This document shows, in pieces, positions 12,001 through 21,000 of a stretch of 64,000 bases of DNA (the stretch's first letter is position 1; every line of letters begins with the position of its first letter). This DNA is from Anaerohalosphaeraceae bacterium (lineage in GTDB: Bacteria; Planctomycetota; Phycisphaerae; Sedimentisphaerales; Anaerohalosphaeraceae): the NCBI GenBank assembly GCA_050309605.1, contig JBNRMN010000034.1, forward strand, positions 64,001 through 128,000. Reading direction: 5' to 3'. Made by a program: the position numbers.

Positions 12001-15000
12001 GAATGTCTCGCGTTCGGCCGGCGATGCCATCGCGGACAAAGATGATCTGGCGCGATTGTCAGGCAAGCGCGGCAGGACGATGGGTCCGCTCAGGCCGGTG
12101 GGGGTTTGCGAGATTGAGGGCAAGCGGGTCATCTGCAGCGCCGAGGTGGGATTTATCCCCAAAGAGACTGAGATTGAAGTCATCCGTGTGGAAGGCAACA
12201 CGATTACCGTGCGAACAAAAGAAACACATATTTAATTTCGAAAGGAGTCAACAATGATCGAGGCATTGCTGCTTGCCAATGTTGTCCAGGTCGGCTTTTT
12301 TATCGTGATCGGCCTGATCTTACTGCTCTTTGTGATGCTGGTGATTTTTTACGGGAATTTGTGGCTTCAGGCCCGATTCTCAGGCGCTCCGGTCTCCTTT
12401 GCCGAACTGATCGGGATGTCGCTTCGCAAGGTCAATTCCCGCACGATTGTTGTGAGTCGAATTACCGCGGCCAAGGCGGGTTTGGAGCTGACCACGGCGC
12501 AGCTTGAAAGCCATTATCTTGCCGGCGGACGTGTGCCGAATGTCGTCAGTGCGCTGATTGCCGCCGACCGAGCCAATATCAATCTGTCCTGGCAGGTTGC
12601 CACCGCGATTGATCTTGCCGGACGCGATATTCTCGAAGCGGTGCAAACCAGCGTCAATCCCAAGGTCATCGACTGTCCCGATCCGCGCAAAGGCCGCGAA
12701 ACCGTCGATGCGGTCGCCCAGGACGGCATTCAGCTCAAGGCCAAGGCCCGCGTAACGGTTCGTGCCAATATCGAGCGACTCATCGGCGGAGCAACCGAGG
12801 AGACCATCATCGCGCGTGTCGGTGAGGGAATTGTCACCACCATCGGCAGCGCGGTCAACCACAAAAGCGTGCTGGAAAATCCCGACCGCATTTCACGAGC
12901 GGTGCTCGAAAAAGGCCTGGATGCCGGCACGGCCTTTGAAATCCTGTCCATTGATATCGCGGATGTCGATGTAGGGCAAAATATCGGCGCCCAGCTTCAG
13001 GGAGCACAGGCCGAGGCCGACAAACTTCGCGCCAAGGCCGAGGCGGAAAAACGACGCGCCATGGCCGTCGCGCGCGAACAGGAAATGCGTGCGCTGGTCG
13101 AAGAAAATCGCGCCAAAGTGGTGCTGGCCGAGGCGGAAATCCCGCTGGCCATGGCCGAGGCCTTTCGCAAGGGCAATCTCGGTGTGATGGATTACTATCG
13201 CCTGAAAAATATCAAATCCGATACTGAAATGCGCGAATCCATTGCCAAAGGTGACGCCAAGCCCAAGTCGGAGGACTGATTGTGTCGATGGCAGCCTATA
13301 CAATGCCGCCGGCAAACGGCGATTGGCTGGAGTTGCTTTTCCCCATTGTGCTGATGGTGGTTTACTGGGCTGCGGCGGTGGGCAAGGCATTTATGGCGCG
13401 CGCAAAGCAAAAAGATCAGCAGGCCGAGAGTGCTTCACGATCGGATGTGCCGGAGCGATCAGCGCCGCGGTTTAAGCCGCTTGATCAAGCCGCTCGCTCC
13501 CGTCAACAGACGCCGCCGCAGCGAACGCTGCCGTATGCGCGCACAGCATCCCGAAGTTCCGGTCTGCCCTCGGAGCCGTCCTATGCCGATCAGGAGGCCC
13601 GACGGCGCGCCGATCAGGAACGTCAACAGCAGATCGAACAACGTCGGCTTCGACACATCGAGGCGTTGCGCCGTCAGCAATTGCAGCGAAAACAGTATAT
13701 GCAGCGTCAGCAGCAGATTCAGCAACAAGCGTCACAGTCGGTCAAGGCGGCTCAAACCGTCGGACAGCGGGTCTTGCGGTCGCCGGGCAGTGTGTCCAAG
13801 ACTCCGCAGGAGGCCTTGAGGCAGGCGCGCACCGGAAAACCGGTCGGCGTCGGGGCGGCCGCTGCACGTCCGGCTGCAGGCAAGGAGCCGCCTCAAGTCC
13901 GCCCAGCAATACGGCAAGAGCCAATCGAAGCGGGCGGCTCGTCCGCGGCCGAATTGCGCCGAATGCTGCAAAAACGCGGAAGTTTGCGTACGGCGTTTGT
14001 GCTGAAGGAAATCCTTGATTTGCCGATGGCTTTGCGGGACGGGTAAAACCCTGTTTTACCGCGGATTGACTGCTGCATTCAGTCGATTTGGCGAAATATT
14101 TGCCGGATATTAGTCGTCTGTTTGTCGCCGGGCGGCCAGAATCGCTGCGCCCAGGGCGCCGGTAAACTGTGGCGATTGACAGACCTTGACCGGTTGAGCC
14201 AGGACGGTTTCAAAGGCCTCGCGCATTCCCGAAATCAGCGCTGCGCCGCCGGTAAAATAGACGGGGCTTTGGATCAGGCCGCCGCCCATTGCCGCCAGTC
14301 GGCGTACGATGGCGTTTTGCACGCCGGCGATAATATTTTCGCGCGATTGGCCCTGGGCGAGCAGGCCGACGATCTCGGTCTCGGCAAAAACCACACAAAT
14401 GCTGCTGACGGCTGCGGGGGCATCGCTGCGGCGGGCGTAATCACCCAGCTCATCCAGCGGCACATCCAGCCGGTCGGCGACGACTTCCAGGAATCGCCCG
14501 GTCCCGGCGGCGCAGCGATCGTTCATCACAAAATCCCGCACCTTGCCCCGGCTGTCCAGTCGAATGAGTTTGCTGTCCTGTCCGCCGATGTCGATGACGG
14601 TGGCGACGTCCGGGTGCAGATGGGCGGCGCCGACGGCATGGCAGGTGATTTCGGTGATCGTCGTATCGCTTACATTCACGAGCCTGCGTCCGTAGCCGGT
14701 CGCGGCCACAGCGGCGACGCGACTGCGATTGATCTTTACCTCATTGAGGAGATCATAAAACAGGCGTCGAGCGCGACTCTGCTGATCGGCGCCCTGGTCG
14801 TCCAAGCGGCGGGCCAACACGGTTTGCTGTTGACTGTCCCACAGCACGGCCTTAAGCGTGCGCGAGCCGGCGTCAATGCCTGCGGTAATCATATTGCTCT
14901 CCTGCTTTTTGCGGTTTCGATTAAGGCTTCCAATCGCGTTGTCAGCGATGATTCATACGGGTCAATCAGCGTGGGAATTTCGATATCCAGAACGGCAAGC

Positions 15001-18000: not shown

Positions 18001-21000
18001 TCGGTGATGTGGTAGCCATAGGTGGATTTAATCAGGGGGCACAGGCCGGCGGGCAGGTCCTGTTCGGCCGGGGCAATTGTTTCCAGCGACCCGCCGCACA
18101 GACACACCGGCACACCGCCGGCGGCAAGAATCAGTTCGCGCGGTGTGTATTCGCACATAATCCCGACGATGGGACGACCCTGGGATTGGGCGGCTGTCGC
18201 AAAGGCGTAACAGTGTTGAATCATTTGATCGAAGCGGCATTGTATCTGCGGGTTTTGGTTCTGTGTCATTTGAATGTTCCTCTGACGATCAGGGGCTCAA
18301 ATCGATTCTTATGCGGTTTTTACCGCGACGAACAAAGCCTGGATGATTTTGCCCTCGCGGGCCAGTTTTTCCATGGCGGCCATCTCTTTGCCGATGGTGT
18401 TGAGCAGGGTCTGGTCAAAGCCGATAATTTTCAGGGCGTCATACGTAAGCTGCGTACCGACCATTTTTTGATAGAGTTCCACATGGTCGGCAAAGCGGCC
18501 GGTGTCTTCCAGGTGCTTGACGGTGCAGCCGCTTTGTTCAAGCAGAGCGGCGTATCCGCTGCGGCTCTGAAGGTTGGGGAATTTCATAAACGCCAGTGTC
18601 CGCTGCAATTCCTCGGCGGTCATCGGCACATCGCCGAGCACCCAGTCGGTAAAGGCAATCGTACCGCCGGGGCGGACGATGCGGCAGGCCTCGGCAATCA
18701 TCGTGTCTTTGTCTTCCACATAGCACCAGGCGTCCTCGCCCCAGACGAAATCGGCGCTGGCAGCGGCAAGTCCGCTATTGCAGACATCGGCCAGGACAAA
18801 CTGAATCTTATCGTCAGAATGTTCTTCCTGGCAACGTTTTTTACCCAGTTCGACCATCGCTGCTGTGGCATCAACGCCGGTCATGGCGGCGACGCCGCAG
18901 AACCGCACGAGGAAGCGCATCCCTGCGCCGCTGCAGCAGCAGAAATCCACGCCTTTGGTACCGGGCTGAATTGCGGCCTTCTTGGCCAGATCCATCGACG
19001 AGGTCAATCCGCCGATATGAATCTGCTCGCCCATGAGCAATTCCCAGAGTTTGCCTTCGGGGCCGCTATAAACCGTTTGAACCGCTGCCAGCGGACTGTT
19101 TGATTGTTGTGCTGTTTGCTTCATTGTGTAATCCGTTGATAAAAAAAGCGGGCCGAAACTGTTTTTCGACCCGCCGATACTTGCTCTGTTGTGTGAGGAC
19201 TGCTTATCGCGTCAACTCCTCAATCGAATACCATCGGTTTTCCTGGTGGACGGTAAACGGTCCGGAATCGATGTCGATTTCGATGCGGAACCGCCTGCGG
19301 AAGTCCTCTGGCACTCGCCACGAGTACCGGCAGGTGCTGCCTCACCCATACTCCATAGAGCCGGTGCGCAGGAAACCGCCGTCTTCAAGCCGAGCTGTTT
19401 CGAAGTTTGTATAGAAAAACGAATAGCCAGGAGATTGCGAATGTTTTTTTTCGATTCCCGTCATGACTCCGATTCCAATGTGTCCGTCAATTCTTTAAAG
19501 ACGTTTGCCGTACGACGGTGTTACGAAGATTTTTGTTATTTTTTACCGTTTTAACAGAAAAAAAGCAAGCGGATTCAACGACATTTTTGTATTGTACAAA
19601 AAAAGCACAAAATGTCTTGAATTTAAGTGTCTTGGCTTGCTTTTTGGGCGGATCGGCGTACAATAACATCGCAGGCAGGGACTGATTGATCGGACTACGA
19701 AAGGCGGCTTATGGAAGCACAGATTCAGGCGCAGCTTCGGCAGATTCCTTCGGTGGATGCGGTGTTATCGCAGATTCAGGCACATCCGGCGGCCCGGCGT
19801 GTGGGTGCGGCGATGCGGACGCAACTGGTGCGCGAGGTGATTGAGACAATCCGCCGGCAGGTGCGGGACGGGACATTTTCAGCCGATGCCGATATGGCCG
19901 GGGCGGTGCGGGACCGGATCGAGCGGCGACTGGAAGCGGTGGCGGGGGTGTTTTATCGACGGGTGGTCAATGCGGCCGGGATCATTCTGCACACCGGACT
20001 GGGACGGGCGCCGCTGGCGGGTGAGGTCCTGGAGCAGATCAGCTGGCAGTTGGGCGGGTATTCGCTGTTGCAGGTGGATGTCGAGGCGGGCAAGCGGTCC
20101 TCGCGAGATGGACGGATTGAAGACTTGCTCAAACTGCTGACCGGCGCCGAAGCGGCGACCGTGGTGAATAATAACGCCGCGGCCACGGCGCTGGTGCTGA
20201 ACACCATTGCCGCAGGCAAAGAGGTCATCGTGTCGCGCGGACAGCTCGTCGAGATCGGCGGGGCGTTTCGCCTGCCGGACGTGATGGCCTTTAGCGGGGC
20301 CAGGCTGGTCGAGGTGGGTACCACCAACAAGACGCACCTGCGGGATTATGAGAATGCGATTACCGAAAACACCGCCGCGATTTTGCGGGTGCATCCGAGC
20401 AATTATAAGATTACGGGTTTTACGAGCGAAGTGCCGCTGGAGGAGATGGTCAAGCTGGCCCACGCCAACGGCCTTTTGCTGTTTGATGATGTCGGGGCCG
20501 GGTCGCTGATTGATTTTTCGCGATTTGGATTTGAAAAAGAGCCGACGTTGATGGAATCGGTCGCCGCCGGGGCCGATGTGATTACCTCCAGCGGCGACAA
20601 ACTCATCGGGGCCTCTCAGGCGGGGATCGTCCTTGGCCGTGCCGAAATCATCCAGAAGGTGCGCAAAAATCAATTTGCGCGGATCGTGCGGGTCGATAAG
20701 TTTACGCTGGCGGCGTTGGAGGCGACGCTGAAATTGTTTCTGGATGAGGCGGCGGTGTTGGAAAAGGTGCCCGCCTTGCGGCTGATGCTGCGTTCGGCGG
20801 AGGAGATTCAGCGGCAGGCCGAGCGCATCTGCGAACGGGTGCAGAGGGCCTGCCCTGATGCGTGCGTCTCACTGCTGCCGGGCCAGTCGCAAATCGGAAG
20901 CGGCTCACTGCCCGGACAAAACCTGCCGACGACCCTGGTGGCAATTGCGTCGCCGCATCAATCCGCTGCGGCACTGGCCGACACGCTGCGGGGCGCTGCG

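Follow-up and report, generated by a model that had tools for sequence, protein, structure and literature searches.

The locus described here raises the question of why a methyltransferase and a set of iron-sulfur reductases should lie beside the genes for selenocysteine (Sec) incorporation in an Anaerohalosphaeraceae bacterium, and what they might act on. The window analysed was a single stretch of 64,000 nucleotides, to which all positions refer. On the minus strand, an 86-codon open reading frame (ORF) with one UGA and a SECIS (19204..19464) is followed by a SAM methyltransferase (MT; 18309..19124), a double-cubane-cluster protein (DCCP; 17124..18269), two divergent HGD-D proteins (16268..17200 and 14889..16280) and an ATP-dependent activase, or archerase (14110..14892). 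The genome-wide survey's note had given this order and its divergence from selA and selB, and all coordinates were confirmed; selA (selenocysteine synthase, 19711..21111; Pfam SelA E 1e-140) and selB (Sec-specific elongation factor, 21182..23089; GTP_EFTU and SelB winged-helix domains) lie on the plus strand. The AT-rich spacer of 246 nt between the ORF and selA contains a promoter-like site on the minus strand (19591..19618; 9/12 matches, by consensus scan only), which is weak because the scan of the whole region returned three sites against 2.4 expected. The minus-strand genes had been called an operon; they are co-linear and co-directional, but a conserved terminator with covariation splits the ORF from MT.

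The ORF had been described as a small G-U-GG selenoprotein. A UGA ORF with a SECIS is present (a single in-frame TGA at 19342-19344, U41), but its motif in this genome is Y-G-U-G-S, differing from G-U-G-G, and a small-protein family was rejected, the 86-aa product corresponding to the C-terminal third of a widespread family of 180-960 aa. The ORF is a truncated member of this large, unannotated and undescribed family of membrane-anchored G-U-GG-domain selenoproteins. Its conserved core begins at the ATG at 19356 (50 codons), where dS is 0.124 compared with 0.79-0.94 in the adjoining genes; over the 86-codon ORF in this genus, dN is approximately equal to dS. The SECIS (19310..19328, minus strand; GGUACUCG-UGG-CGAGUGCC) is an 8-bp hairpin with a UGG loop, starting 13 nt past the UGA. 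Among 77 distinct homologues 97.6% of its pair cells were paired, compared with 25-61% when the partner columns were slid, and synonymous codons were fixed across the region (CGG 63, UCG 72 and CGA 69, in 77 sequences). The Y-G-U-G-G-x-C loop is invariant in the G-U-GG family, an invariance much of which is explained by the motif encoding the SECIS hairpin. Relatives of the domain also occur as ectodomains of other proteins, among them a Ser/Thr kinase fusion, a setting that points to ligand binding.

The terminator between the ORF and MT (19141..19175, minus strand) is a 12-bp hairpin followed by a run of seven T residues. In 39 homologous sequences 89.7% of its cells were paired and seven pairs carried compensatory changes, a result equalled by none of 500 shuffles; the pattern GGCGGG...CCCGC-T5+ occurs just twice in the 3.4-Mb genome. 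A segment overlapping the 5' arm (19169..19181, minus strand) is complementary to the 5' half of the SECIS, and its duplex with 19323-19335 was calculated at -23.9 kcal/mol; over 40 entries the median for this duplex was -31.0, compared with -18.8 for shuffled segments. This long-range helix was paired in 87.5% of cells (25-49% when slid) and showed no covariation, its 5' side being nearly invariant coding sequence; its shuffle control (500/500) is uninformative. This complementarity between SECIS region and terminator 5' arm gives the element the look of an attenuator, and the overlapping segment is a candidate anti-SECIS or anti-terminator. Leader-peptide attenuators of the trp type are a precedent. 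Selenium control of transcription via UGA decoding is described for Treponema primitia fdhF-Sec in the accessible text of that report (mBio 2013, PMC3892789). As in these systems, a reading frame bearing the UGA and SECIS lies upstream of the regulated DNA and the predicted RNA helices are mutually exclusive, one being an intrinsic terminator; here, however, the conserved segment is predicted to pair with the SECIS itself while overlapping the terminator arm. A full-text literature search found no SECIS-coupled terminator of this kind.

MT (271 aa) is a class I SAM-dependent methyltransferase (Methyltransf_11 E 3e-16) that reached the cutoff of no family in the NCBIfam scan. The label UbiE-type was not upheld (UbiE/MenG 35 bits against a cutoff of 158), and ArsM was likewise rejected (39 bits against 263). 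The family profile matched plant phosphoethanolamine N-methyltransferase (PMT) best, in its second domain (E 2e-19), and also matched a putative SDMT (2O57; E 2e-15), with matches spanning ~160-195 residues. By profile comparison, MT thus resembles phosphoethanolamine/sarcosine N-methyltransferases rather than UbiE or ArsM. The class I SAM fold is common to MT, PMT, the sarcosine/dimethylglycine N-methyltransferases, ArsM and UbiE, but MT differs in its motif I, D-[FL]-C-C-C-x-G in the family and D-F-C-C-C-S-G here, and in seven cysteines conserved at ≥94%, of which Cys62-64 and Cys134 do not vary among 81 sequences. In the alignment the family has W-G-E-D-A-W-C-Y opposite Y-S-R-D-T-I-L-H of plant PMT, in which we take the His to be catalytic.

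The three HGD-D-type proteins had been regarded as one three-subunit double-cubane reductase. This did not hold, since the DCCP signature is confined to the 381-aa protein, and DCCP and the other two are each found without the other. DCCP scored 406.5 bits with NF040772 (cutoff 350) and matched PDB 6ENO and 7YYL at E ~1e-54 (6ENO E 2e-54), aligned to chain residues 64-421; all 57 orthologues compared retain its seven motif cysteines. In passing NF040772 it is like the Carboxydothermus hydrogenoformans DCCP/DCCP-R pair (6ENO, 7YYL) and Escherichia coli YjiM/YjiL, and like the C. hydrogenoformans protein it keeps all seven cluster cysteines and has an archerase-type activase in its operon. It differs from that protein in slightly altered cysteine spacings (X18-X18-X29-X158-X29-X32) and in lacking the N-terminal ~60 residues, which a 2020 review tied to a narrow substrate channel, and is therefore assigned to the short, YjiM-like class. 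Unlike the known pairs, it is embedded with MT, two more HGD-D proteins and sel genes.

The two divergent HGD-D proteins resemble the unlike HGD-D-family subunits of HgdAB, HadBC and BzdNO, which similarly adjoin an ATP-dependent activase, with at least three invariant cysteines per subunit, as expected for [4Fe-4S] sites. The 463-aa protein, the candidate catalytic subunit, matched Pfam HGD-D at E 1e-31 and NF040772 at merely 48.7 bits (cutoff 350), and 46 orthologues all keep its Cys116, 138, 167 and 287. The 310-aa ORF (HGD-D E 2e-25) probably starts at the conserved ATG at 17119, 4 nt past the DCCP stop; its Cys67, 89 and 264 are unchanged across 50 orthologues. Similarity to solved members was, however, marginal (best PDB matches E 1e-5 and, to BzdN, E 0.006, respectively), and there is only one activase gene. 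In BzdNO, the class I benzoyl-CoA reductase, a double-cubane subunit is paired with a catalytic [4Fe-4S] one, according to the accessible part of its source. The neighbour genes scanned included no CoA ligase or transferase. The BcrAD/BadFG-type activator (260 aa) was borne out (BcrAD_BadFG E 6e-54; TIGR00241 251 bits, cutoff 125), and none of 43 orthologues lacks its cluster ligands Cys127 and Cys166.

The pairing of selenoprotein and MT was confirmed across the order when genomes were not selected on the selenoprotein: a single-copy MT orthologue (57-81% identity) was present in 97 of 401 Sedimentisphaerales genomes, 96 of which were G-U-GG-positive. Gene order was surveyed in the best 80 of 576 MT loci; since the genomes share ancestry and these 80 loci are those closest to the query, the counts are less independent than they look. 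In this set both HGD-D genes and the activase were present in 38 of the 48 loci with enough downstream DNA, DCCP was adjacent in 36 of those 38 complete modules, and in 28 the next gene past the activase encoded SelD with a C-terminal CMD/AhpD domain and CxxC motif (SelD::AhpD). Directly upstream of MT or of DCCP-MT, 23 loci of the set had a gene for a DUF3034 protein with a C-terminal Phe, which suggests that a substrate or product passes through the envelope. The MT-reductase-activase order is conserved in Sedimentisphaerales, and the locus in this genome represents a reduced version of the Sec island conserved there. In full, the island comprises selB and selA diverging from a promoter, then one to four G-U-GG genes, the terminator, DUF3034 (outer-membrane-like) in some, MT, DCCP, two HGD-D genes, the activase and SelD::AhpD. 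The statement that selD often lies beside the activator applies to the order, but here selD and the activase are on different contigs, selD lying beside tRNA-Sec and having its own promoter-like site.

A fixed coupling of the module to the Sec machinery had also been proposed. The link is stronger than claimed, given SelD::AhpD and the sel genes interleaved with the module in three rearranged loci: L098 (DUF3034-MT-selB-...-DCCP-activase, adjoining selA), L109 (MT-DCCP-selD) and L114. The DCCP-MT order is swapped in L052, L061, L066, L074 and L078, and L046 and L098 retain the adjacency with a selA of just 42-44% identity. The coupling is not fixed, however, as 12 of 37 loci with both flanks had no Sec gene within 10 kb (five of these had MT without a reductase gene), and MT was absent at E≤1e-30 from 29 of 116 selA-positive genomes, several of them ≥92% complete, so the module is not needed for the Sec trait. 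All ten genomes whose MT lies outside a Sec context encode SelD.

The slot directly before selD can be filled in other ways. In Sec-positive genomes without MT the order was G-U-GG, X302, SBP, permease, ATPase and SelD, with a 1-nt overlap between the ATPase and selD ORFs, and in one genome it was G-U-GG, DCCP, activase and SelD; an SAO-like ABC importer, or DCCP and activase alone, can thus take this place. In the accessible part of its description, 21 of 52 species with the selenocysteine-assisted organometallic (SAO) system have DCCP and activase genes no more than 5 kb from the SAO locus, and 955 of 970 strong NF040772 DCCPs fall in SelD-positive assemblies (Haft and Gwadz, bioRxiv 10.1101/2022.07.06.499078). 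As far as that text goes, the island shares with SAO its anaerobic hosts, several novel extracytoplasmic selenoproteins, a tie to SelD, a NitT/TauT-type ABC importer and an adjoining NF040772 DCCP with activase. It differs in that its permease has Cys where SaoP has Sec, in that its selenoproteins form the separate G-U-GG family, and in adding MT, two divergent HGD-D proteins, DUF3034, selA/selB, SelD::AhpD and the SECIS-linked terminator. The island ABC subunits matched SaoP (149 bits), SaoA (225-245) and SaoX (35-44) best or second best in NCBIfam, all below the cutoffs (295, 360 and 300), and are therefore not SAO members. NCBIfam scans of 22 distinct island and neighbour proteins, in which the families were not queried by accession, gave no match to SaoL/C/T/D/E.

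Our leading, though still tentative, explanation, held at a little under even confidence, is a selenium-processing module that acts in the same supply or homeostasis pathway as SelD, with its expression tied to UGA decoding. The activase would pass ATP-energised electrons of very low potential to DCCP and to an HgdAB/BzdNO-like heterodimer, and the cytoplasmic module, with SAM, would convert a small compound entering from outside, either one that contains selenium or a near chalcogen or metalloid relative of it; the reduce-and-methylate chemistry on selenium that the note proposed is still an inference. Expression would occur by read-through of the terminator, whose 5' arm can pair instead with the SECIS of the preceding ORF and so make it dependent on UGA decoding. 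In this genus that ORF, having lost its membrane anchor and half of the domain, would probably be mainly a leader. In favour of this explanation are the conserved arrangement, the alternative modules that fill the slot before selD, the rearranged loci, the co-occurrence with SelD, the covarying terminator, the conserved complementarity to the SECIS, the low dS of the core ORF and, for a compound that passes through the envelope, DUF3034. Several observations count against it: a SAM methyltransferase is off the direct route from selenide to selenophosphate, leaving its role in supply unexplained, and the nearest solved relatives of MT are N-methyltransferases of small amines; the loci without Sec genes nearby, the selA-positive genomes without MT, the lack of compensatory change in the long-range helix and the separate selD here weigh on the same side. 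A less likely competitor is an SAO-like system with a selenium-free substrate, in which the extracytoplasmic G-U-GG proteins and the importer capture an organometallic, metalloid or other refractory molecule for MT and the DCCP/HGD-D proteins to transform in the cytoplasm, the sel genes being nearby only because selenoproteins are needed. The Sao matches, the DCCP and activase genes near SAO loci in the accessible part of that study, the ectodomain and kinase relatives and the modules without Sec genes agree with it, but all the matches are below cutoff, and neither the selD, often translationally coupled, that ends the operon behind either module nor the terminator wired to the SECIS is accounted for.

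That the module has no functional link to the Sec genes and is an independent catabolic or detoxification unit, which by chance came to lie beside the Sec island in an ancestral member of the order and has been inherited with it since, is unlikely. In its favour, most carriers belong to one order, and module and Sec trait each occur alone; the adjacency nevertheless survives several gene orders and a divergent selA, G-U-GG genes accompany nearly every MT, and the module sits inside a transcription unit ending with selD. Slightly less probable again is that DCCP, the HGD-D proteins or both depend on SelD-made selenophosphate for the maturation of a selenium-containing Fe-S cluster, and therefore travel with selD, their substrate being unrelated to selenium. 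The DCCP-activase-SelD variant fits, and the accessible text of Haft and Gwadz (bioRxiv 10.1101/2022.07.06.499078) lists this as a formal possibility for the co-occurrence of DCCP and SelD. MT, DUF3034 and the alternative importer would, however, be left without a role, and the solved DCCP structures are described as [8Fe-9S]. The solved protein was reportedly made heterologously with no selenium added. Most improbable is a RiPP-like scheme in which the G-U-GG proteins are themselves substrates, MT and radical-type HGD-D enzymes altering the Y-G-U-G-G-x-C loop before export. Tandem small or medium genes, a conserved and possibly leaky terminator and then enzymes, together with the invariant loop, recall such clusters, but MT and HGD-D genes are absent from many G-U-GG-positive, Sec-positive genomes, the G-U-GG proteins are membrane-anchored ectodomain proteins rather than peptides, and the encoded SECIS explains much of the invariance.

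In this island, conserved in anaerobic planctomycetes, the genes lying between an unrecognised selenoprotein family and the selenium-activating enzyme encode a methyltransferase and iron-sulfur reductases driven by ATP, and the island offers a concrete way to test the role of these orphan reductases.

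Six open reading frames (ORFs) were located on the minus strand of the window, divergent from selA and selB on the plus strand, confirming the gene order reported in the genome-wide survey's note. These are an 86-codon ORF (19204-19464) with one in-frame TGA (U41, ...MEYGUGSTCRYSWRVP...), which carries the selenocysteine (Sec) motif of the domain family here called G-U-GG; a class I SAM methyltransferase (MT; 18309-19124, 271 aa); a double-cubane-cluster protein (DCCP; 17124-18269, 381 aa); two proteins of the 2-hydroxyacyl-CoA dehydratase-type family (HGD-D; ORF 16268-17200, 310 aa as an ORF, and 14889-16280, 463 aa); and an ATP-dependent archerase-type activase (14110-14892, 260 aa). 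From MT to activase the frames overlap or are separated by gaps of no more than 39 nt; the start of the 310-aa protein was placed at ATG 17119, 4 nt past the preceding stop, by orthologue alignment and sequence context. Rfam gave no match at E<=1 across window positions 10000-30000. A 254-aa ORF on the plus strand (13282-14046), without a Pfam or NCBIfam family, converges on the activase and is preceded by FloA (12254-13279).

The 381-aa protein belongs to NF040772 (406.5 bits, cutoff 350). The seven cysteines of the [8Fe-9S] motif (C39, C58, C77, C107, C266, C296 and C329) are invariant in 57 orthologues, with spacings 1-8 residues off those published, and an [8Fe-9S] cluster and ATP-driven reduction are predicted. 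The 381-aa protein aligns with the solved DCCP (E about 1e-54) starting at chain residue 64 of the latter. According to the accessible text of a 2020 review, an N-terminal extension is associated with a narrow channel, and double-cubane proteins are widespread in anaerobes with no physiological substrate known; the 381-aa protein has no such extension and is therefore of the short, YjiM-like kind. All three reductase proteins exceeded the gathering threshold of Pfam HGD-D (PF06050; 316, 111 and 91 bits against 28.4). As DCCPs, the 463-aa and 310-aa proteins were rejected, scoring 48.7 and 43.0 bits against the cutoff of 350 and having 3-6 conserved cysteines. The "three-subunit double-cubane reductase" of the survey's note was consequently not supported, because only the 381-aa protein is a member of NF040772 and because the DCCP and the HGD-D pair occur without each other. 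The interpretation given in that note thus stood in part and could be sharpened: the conserved order was upheld, and the three-subunit DCCP and the UbiE assignment of the MT were not.

The 463-aa and 310-aa proteins are remote from solved structures (E 1e-5 and 0.006). The two divergent proteins have three (310-aa) and at least four (463-aa) invariant cysteines, and may form a heterodimer like HgdAB or BzdNO. Identity as a 2-hydroxyacyl-CoA dehydratase or benzoyl-CoA reductase was rejected, since the equivalog models scored far below their cutoffs and the scanned neighbours, in the window and in 19 related loci, included no CoA transferase or ligase. The activase contains a BcrAD_BadFG domain, scores 251 bits with TIGR00241 (cutoff 125) and has both cluster-bridging cysteines, C127 and C166, which are invariant.

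The MT did not reach any NCBIfam cutoff. It had been described as UbiE-type, a name that was not borne out: UbiE/MenG (TIGR01934) gave 34.9 bits against a cutoff of 158, and the match to Pfam Ubie_methyltran (28.0 against 20.1) covers the SAM-binding half only. ArsM (NF008823) was likewise rejected (39.3 bits, cutoff 263). The family profile is nearest to phosphoethanolamine (E 2e-19) and sarcosine/dimethylglycine (E 2e-15) N-methyltransferases; membership of either was discounted as the MT has G-E-D-A-W-C-Y in place of S-R-D-x-I-L-H, a segment whose histidine presumably has an active-site role in those enzymes. The SAM motif I contains C-C-C, and seven cysteines are conserved at >=94%; cysteine-rich small-molecule methyltransferases acting on soft metalloids exist, ArsM being one. 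The ESM Atlas gave only generic methyltransferase or PEAMT-like clusters for the MT, with no structure model.

Conservation was assessed from the MT side, which avoids selecting on the selenoprotein. An MT orthologue (57-81% identity, mostly single copy) was present in 97 of 401 genomes of the order Sedimentisphaerales, and 96 of these 97 also encoded G-U-GG proteins, one did not; among genomes lacking the MT, 45 were G-U-GG-positive and 259 negative, all counts being of relatives that are not independent. The pairing of selenoprotein and MT across the order, as claimed in the earlier note, was therefore borne out. selA was present in 116 of the 401 genomes, of which 115 were G-U-GG-positive and 87 MT-positive; within the order, almost every use of the Sec machinery is attributable to the G-U-GG family. 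The counts in the 194 good-quality genomes were 55 for G-U-GG, 53 for selA and 42 for the MT.

A scan of one genome per species yielded 576 confirmed MT relatives, from which the best 80 loci were taken with flanks of up to 10 kb and their gene content counted on tblastn maps. These are the closest relatives, with counts biased toward this lineage; their titles are mostly Phycisphaerae, Sedimentisphaerales or Planctomycetota, with a few other phylum labels. Within these best 80 of 576, both HGD-D genes and the activase followed in order in 38 of the 48 loci with at least 5.3 kb downstream, and the DCCP adjoined the MT in 36 of these 38 complete modules. selD was the next gene after the activase in 28/38 and lay within 10 kb in 30/38, which agrees with the report that selD is often beside the activator. 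Upstream of the MT, the 54 loci with at least 3 kb of sequence contained a same-strand G-U-GG ORF (24), divergent selA/selB (30), an ABC ATPase (9) or none of these (14). At least one Sec-related gene was found in 25 of the 37 loci with both flanks. Where the MT locus had no Sec gene nearby, the genome still encoded SelD above cutoff in all ten cases.

The product of selD is fused to a C-terminal CMD/AhpD domain with C-x-x-C. In this genome the SelD::AhpD gene is on contig C64 (locus L112, 8084-9778), with tRNA-Sec ~100 nt after it (about 9850-9950) and a promoter-like site of its own, TTGCCC-17-TATAAT with TG; selD is therefore separated from the reductase operon here. No second leader was seen upstream of selD in this genome, only the promoter-like site. 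Among the Sec-positive genomes lacking the MT that were examined, four had the order G-U-GG, a ~300-aa unnamed protein (X302), an SsuA-like binding protein, permease, ATPase and SelD::AhpD, with ATPase and selD frames overlapping by 1 nt in the one locus checked (genome G006); another had G-U-GG, DCCP, activase and SelD::AhpD. Among MT loci, L109 had MT-DCCP-selD, the DCCP was ahead of the MT in L052, L061, L066, L074 and L078, and the MT was followed by two HGD-D genes without a DCCP in L065, L073, L082, L086 and L102. L098 had DUF3034-MT-selB-...-DCCP-activase, convergent with a selA of only 42% identity. Five loci had an MT without reductase genes; their neighbours were unrelated (TPR, MurJ, GGDEF/EAL, BatD, FmdE, TauE) and gave no functional hint, with DUF3034 present in two of the five. 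The island is conserved and modular: the place between the G-U-GG genes and selD, behind a conserved terminator, is taken by an importer, by the MT-reductase module or by both.

By NCBIfam hits the relatives' transporter is nearest to the selenocysteine-assisted organometallic (SAO) system, without reaching the cutoffs for membership: the best hits were SaoP (149 bits against 295) and SaoA (225-245 against 360), the second-best SaoX (35-44 against 300), and SAO membership was rejected as all of these are below the equivalog cutoffs. The window itself holds no transporter. A DUF3034 gene, whose product begins with a signal peptide and ends in Phe, is directly upstream of the MT (or DCCP-MT) in 23 of the best 80 of 576 loci, and explains the spacings of ~1.0-1.4 kb between G-U-GG and MT genes in many of them. 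It was not found in this genome; in the same-genus genome G013 (L031, 9100-9970) the copy lying between G-U-GG ORF and MT appears to shift frame part-way and may be a pseudogene. X302 (~290-300 aa; L032 15048-15953, L039 6161-7024, L113 658-1527) has no Pfam or NCBIfam family and no significant similarity to DUF3034. It also ends in Phe, the L032 and L039 copies being 49% identical, and is the first gene before the transporter in the five complete loci mapped (L032, L113, L115, L116 and L118); it may be an outer-membrane component.

Searches with the 86-aa read-through product gave matches in 141 of the 401 genomes, always at residues ~27-83 and always with an in-frame TGA. This stretch of ~55 residues is the C-terminal part of longer relatives (~180-230 aa or ~455-465 aa), which all carry a membrane anchor at the N-terminus and often stand in tandem, up to four per locus. 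The product, regarded earlier as a small selenoprotein, is instead a truncated member of a large family that includes these longer anchored proteins. TGA occupied the Sec site in 98 of 99 motif matches in the loci. As expected of a bacterial selenoprotein gene, the in-frame UGA is conserved among homologues of the 86-codon ORF and is accompanied by a SECIS element, and selA, selB, selD and tRNA-Sec are all encoded in this genome. No Pfam or NCBIfam model matches the domain. The motif listed for the "DG" selenoprotein model NF049953, GUxG, does fit G-U-G-G/S; the model itself gave no match at E<=0.1 in this genome and was rejected as a description of the family.

All 120 public homologues listed stop at the UGA (coverage <=81%), have no Pfam domain and are "hypothetical" wherever named. 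A profile search across 1.84 billion representatives yielded 1346 matches at E<=1e-3; of the best 150, the majority terminate immediately ahead of the Sec position. In 23 of these best 150 the match extends beyond that position: Gly was at the Sec site in four, which a gene caller reading TGA as Gly would give, Cys in two, and the remainder had divergent loops without Sec or Cys at the site. Since such relatives share the domain, the G-U-GG proteins are a Sec-bearing subfamily of a broader extracytoplasmic domain, which we would guess from its sequence to be a beta-sandwich-like ectodomain. A profile match of 815 aa (P0239) has a Ser/Thr kinase domain and a membrane span ahead of a long-G-U-GG-type ectodomain without Sec, an architecture that hints at ligand binding by the ectodomain. 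The ESM Atlas returned only unnamed planctomycete clusters for a truncated homologue, none with a structure model. The family is absent from the selenoprotein lists in the accessible portions of PMC13188914 and of the preprint of Haft and Gwadz (bioRxiv 10.1101/2022.07.06.499078). Two further G-U-GG genes are on contig C2 of this genome (locus L111). One (4808-7693) encodes a 962-aa selenoprotein that has F5/8-type C-like and laminin-G domains and is anchored at its C-terminus. In the 426-aa product of the other (10322-11599) a multi-span membrane region follows the domain, and homologues of this second protein are near the island in L034, L044 and L059.

Neither SelU (TIGR03167) nor FdhA (TIGR01553) was found in this genome, so that its Sec machinery appears to be used by the G-U-GG proteins and a small PGUGNP protein. 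The latter is encoded by an 86-codon ORF directly after selB (23142-23402, plus strand) with an in-frame TGA (...LQPGUGNPF...), and is a small three-helix membrane protein; at least six related loci likewise have a PG-U-G[NS]P ORF after selB (L031, L039, L057, L072 with two copies, L104 and L105). In the distant relative L098, a small secreted-looking ORF after selB (~4830-5158, plus strand) ends in ...K-K-C-P-T-U just before the stop, recalling the C-terminal 'UXX-star' selenoprotein type.

Compared with full-length relatives, the 86-codon ORF keeps the last ~62 residues of the domain, lacks the N-terminal half and has no anchor. Its comparator was the single relative of the same genus in which the locus is present: codons 1-36 and the promoter region could not be aligned between the two, and both genomes have an ATG directly ahead of E-Y-G-U. 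Over the 50-codon core, dN was 0.106 and dS 0.124, calculated from only 15 substitutions, whereas the MT, DCCP, selA and activase genes of the same pair gave dS of 0.79-0.94 (dN/dS 0.14-0.20). Because of this difference in dS the core is, within this small sample, strongly constrained and largely at the nucleotide level, and a leader or RNA role fits the ORF better than that of a folded selenoprotein. Other lineages have short terminal forms too (L013, L039 and L079); they are not enriched before terminators by the strict pattern (4/8 short ORFs against 28/66 longer genes).

The SECIS hairpin, GGUACUCG-UGG-CGAGUGCC, starts 13 nt after the UGA and has 8 bp, with the UGG loop beginning 21 nt past the UGA. 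The SECIS of the ORF family agrees with the model in the available text of PMC13188914, which calls for a G in the apical loop and 16-37 nt from UGA to loop. Pairing of the helix across 77 distinct sequences reached 97.6% of cells; sliding the partner lowered this to 25-61%. One pair showed compensatory changes (3 sequences). The helix codes for R-Y-S-W-R-V-P with synonymous positions fixed (CGG 63/77, UCG 72/77, CGA 69/77), so that the "protein motif" in part reflects a constraint on the RNA.

Between the stop of the ORF (19204) and the start of the MT (19124), a consensus scan detected a 12-bp, 7-GC hairpin followed by T7, with 16 nt between the T7 tract and the MT ATG. Hairpins of the same type, CCGGCGGG...CCCGCC with U6-8, were present in this window and in 18/18 loci in which a G-U-GG gene ends <400 nt before the MT. 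Over a 39-sequence alignment spanning UGA to U tract, the hairpin formed in 89.7% of cells, with compensatory changes at 7 pairs, a result reached by 0/500 shuffles. The GC-rich hairpin, U tract and covariation are those of an intrinsic terminator. A generic terminator family was rejected because the 3.4-Mb genome contains just two occurrences of the pattern.

A stretch of ~18 nt ending in the 5' arm of the terminator, consensus GCCACGAGCACCGGCGGG, is the reverse complement of ACC-UGC-CGG-UAC-UCG-UGG-C, which comprises the Cys codon and the SECIS 5' half. With the RNA folded to the end of the terminator 5' arm, the arm paired with the SECIS region in 24/24 loci. The median energy of this duplex was -31.0 kcal/mol against -18.8 with shuffled 3' segments (40 entries, this window being entered twice), and -24.0 kcal/mol in this window. 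The long-range helix was paired in 87.5% of 663 cells, against 25-49% when slid; it showed zero compensatory changes in the alignment and the shuffle control was uninformative, because its 5' side hardly varies. Three mutually exclusive helices, SECIS, long-range helix and terminator, are thus predicted to exist, which is the anatomy of a leader-type attenuator and makes this region a candidate for one. Decoding of the UGA by ribosomes, or abortion there, would determine if the SECIS 5' half is available for pairing with the terminator 5' arm, and this pairing would in turn decide read-through by RNA polymerase. By classical attenuator logic, translation aborted at the UGA would free the SECIS half for capture, and scarcity of Sec would turn the operon on. 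The precedent of Treponema primitia, where translating through a SECIS increases downstream transcription (accessible text of PMC3892789), argues for the opposite direction. The one run found, a 'transcriptomic' compost library that is probably of DNA, yielded ten short contigs (depth 2-4), and the terminator was spanned by none.

From the gene contexts we infer that the modules act on selenium source or homeostasis, upstream of or beside SelD. Reduction of elemental selenium to selenide requires about -0.7 V, far below the potential of ferredoxin, and ATP-driven archerase systems can deliver such potentials; low-potential electrons of this kind would be the attraction of the module for such a reaction. 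The MT might activate a selenoether or dispose of excess selenide. Against a role in selenium metabolism, however, the module stands alone with no Sec gene nearby in 12 of 37 loci, 29 selA-positive genomes have no MT, and the relatives of the MT are N-methyltransferases. As the Sec machinery seems to serve the G-U-GG and PGUGNP proteins, a purely "selenium acquisition" role for these would be circular, and they must do something else outside the cytoplasm. The full proposition, a Sec-sensing attenuator (truncated G-U-GG ORF, SECIS, 3' segment and terminator) controlling a reductase/MT pathway that renders poorly accessible selenium (e.g. elemental or organically bound) available to SelD or disposes of its excess, is in our view improbable. 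If it were true, it would provide the first physiological role for DCCPs and the first riboregulator built on a SECIS element controlling termination.

The previous link between DCCPs and selenium was one of statistical co-occurrence only, according to the accessible part of the Haft and Gwadz preprint. The island, the G-U-GG family and the SECIS/terminator arrangement were not found described in the literature, and the preprint's supplements may list related neighbourhoods. New here, as read from the genomes, are an unannotated putative selenoprotein family, the apparently first physical operon context of a DCCP with SelD, and a candidate SECIS-coupled attenuator; the functions proposed for the island are ones that we infer. 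Through the island a large selenoprotein family comes to light whose members are cut short at the UGA in public annotation. The island also places the DCCP in a physical, predicted co-transcribed context of envelope protein or ABC importer, then MT and reductases, then SelD, which narrows the search for the DCCP substrate to a short list of selenium or chalcogen compounds. The conserved complementarity between SECIS and terminator suggests a new way in which bacteria may sense their selenium status.
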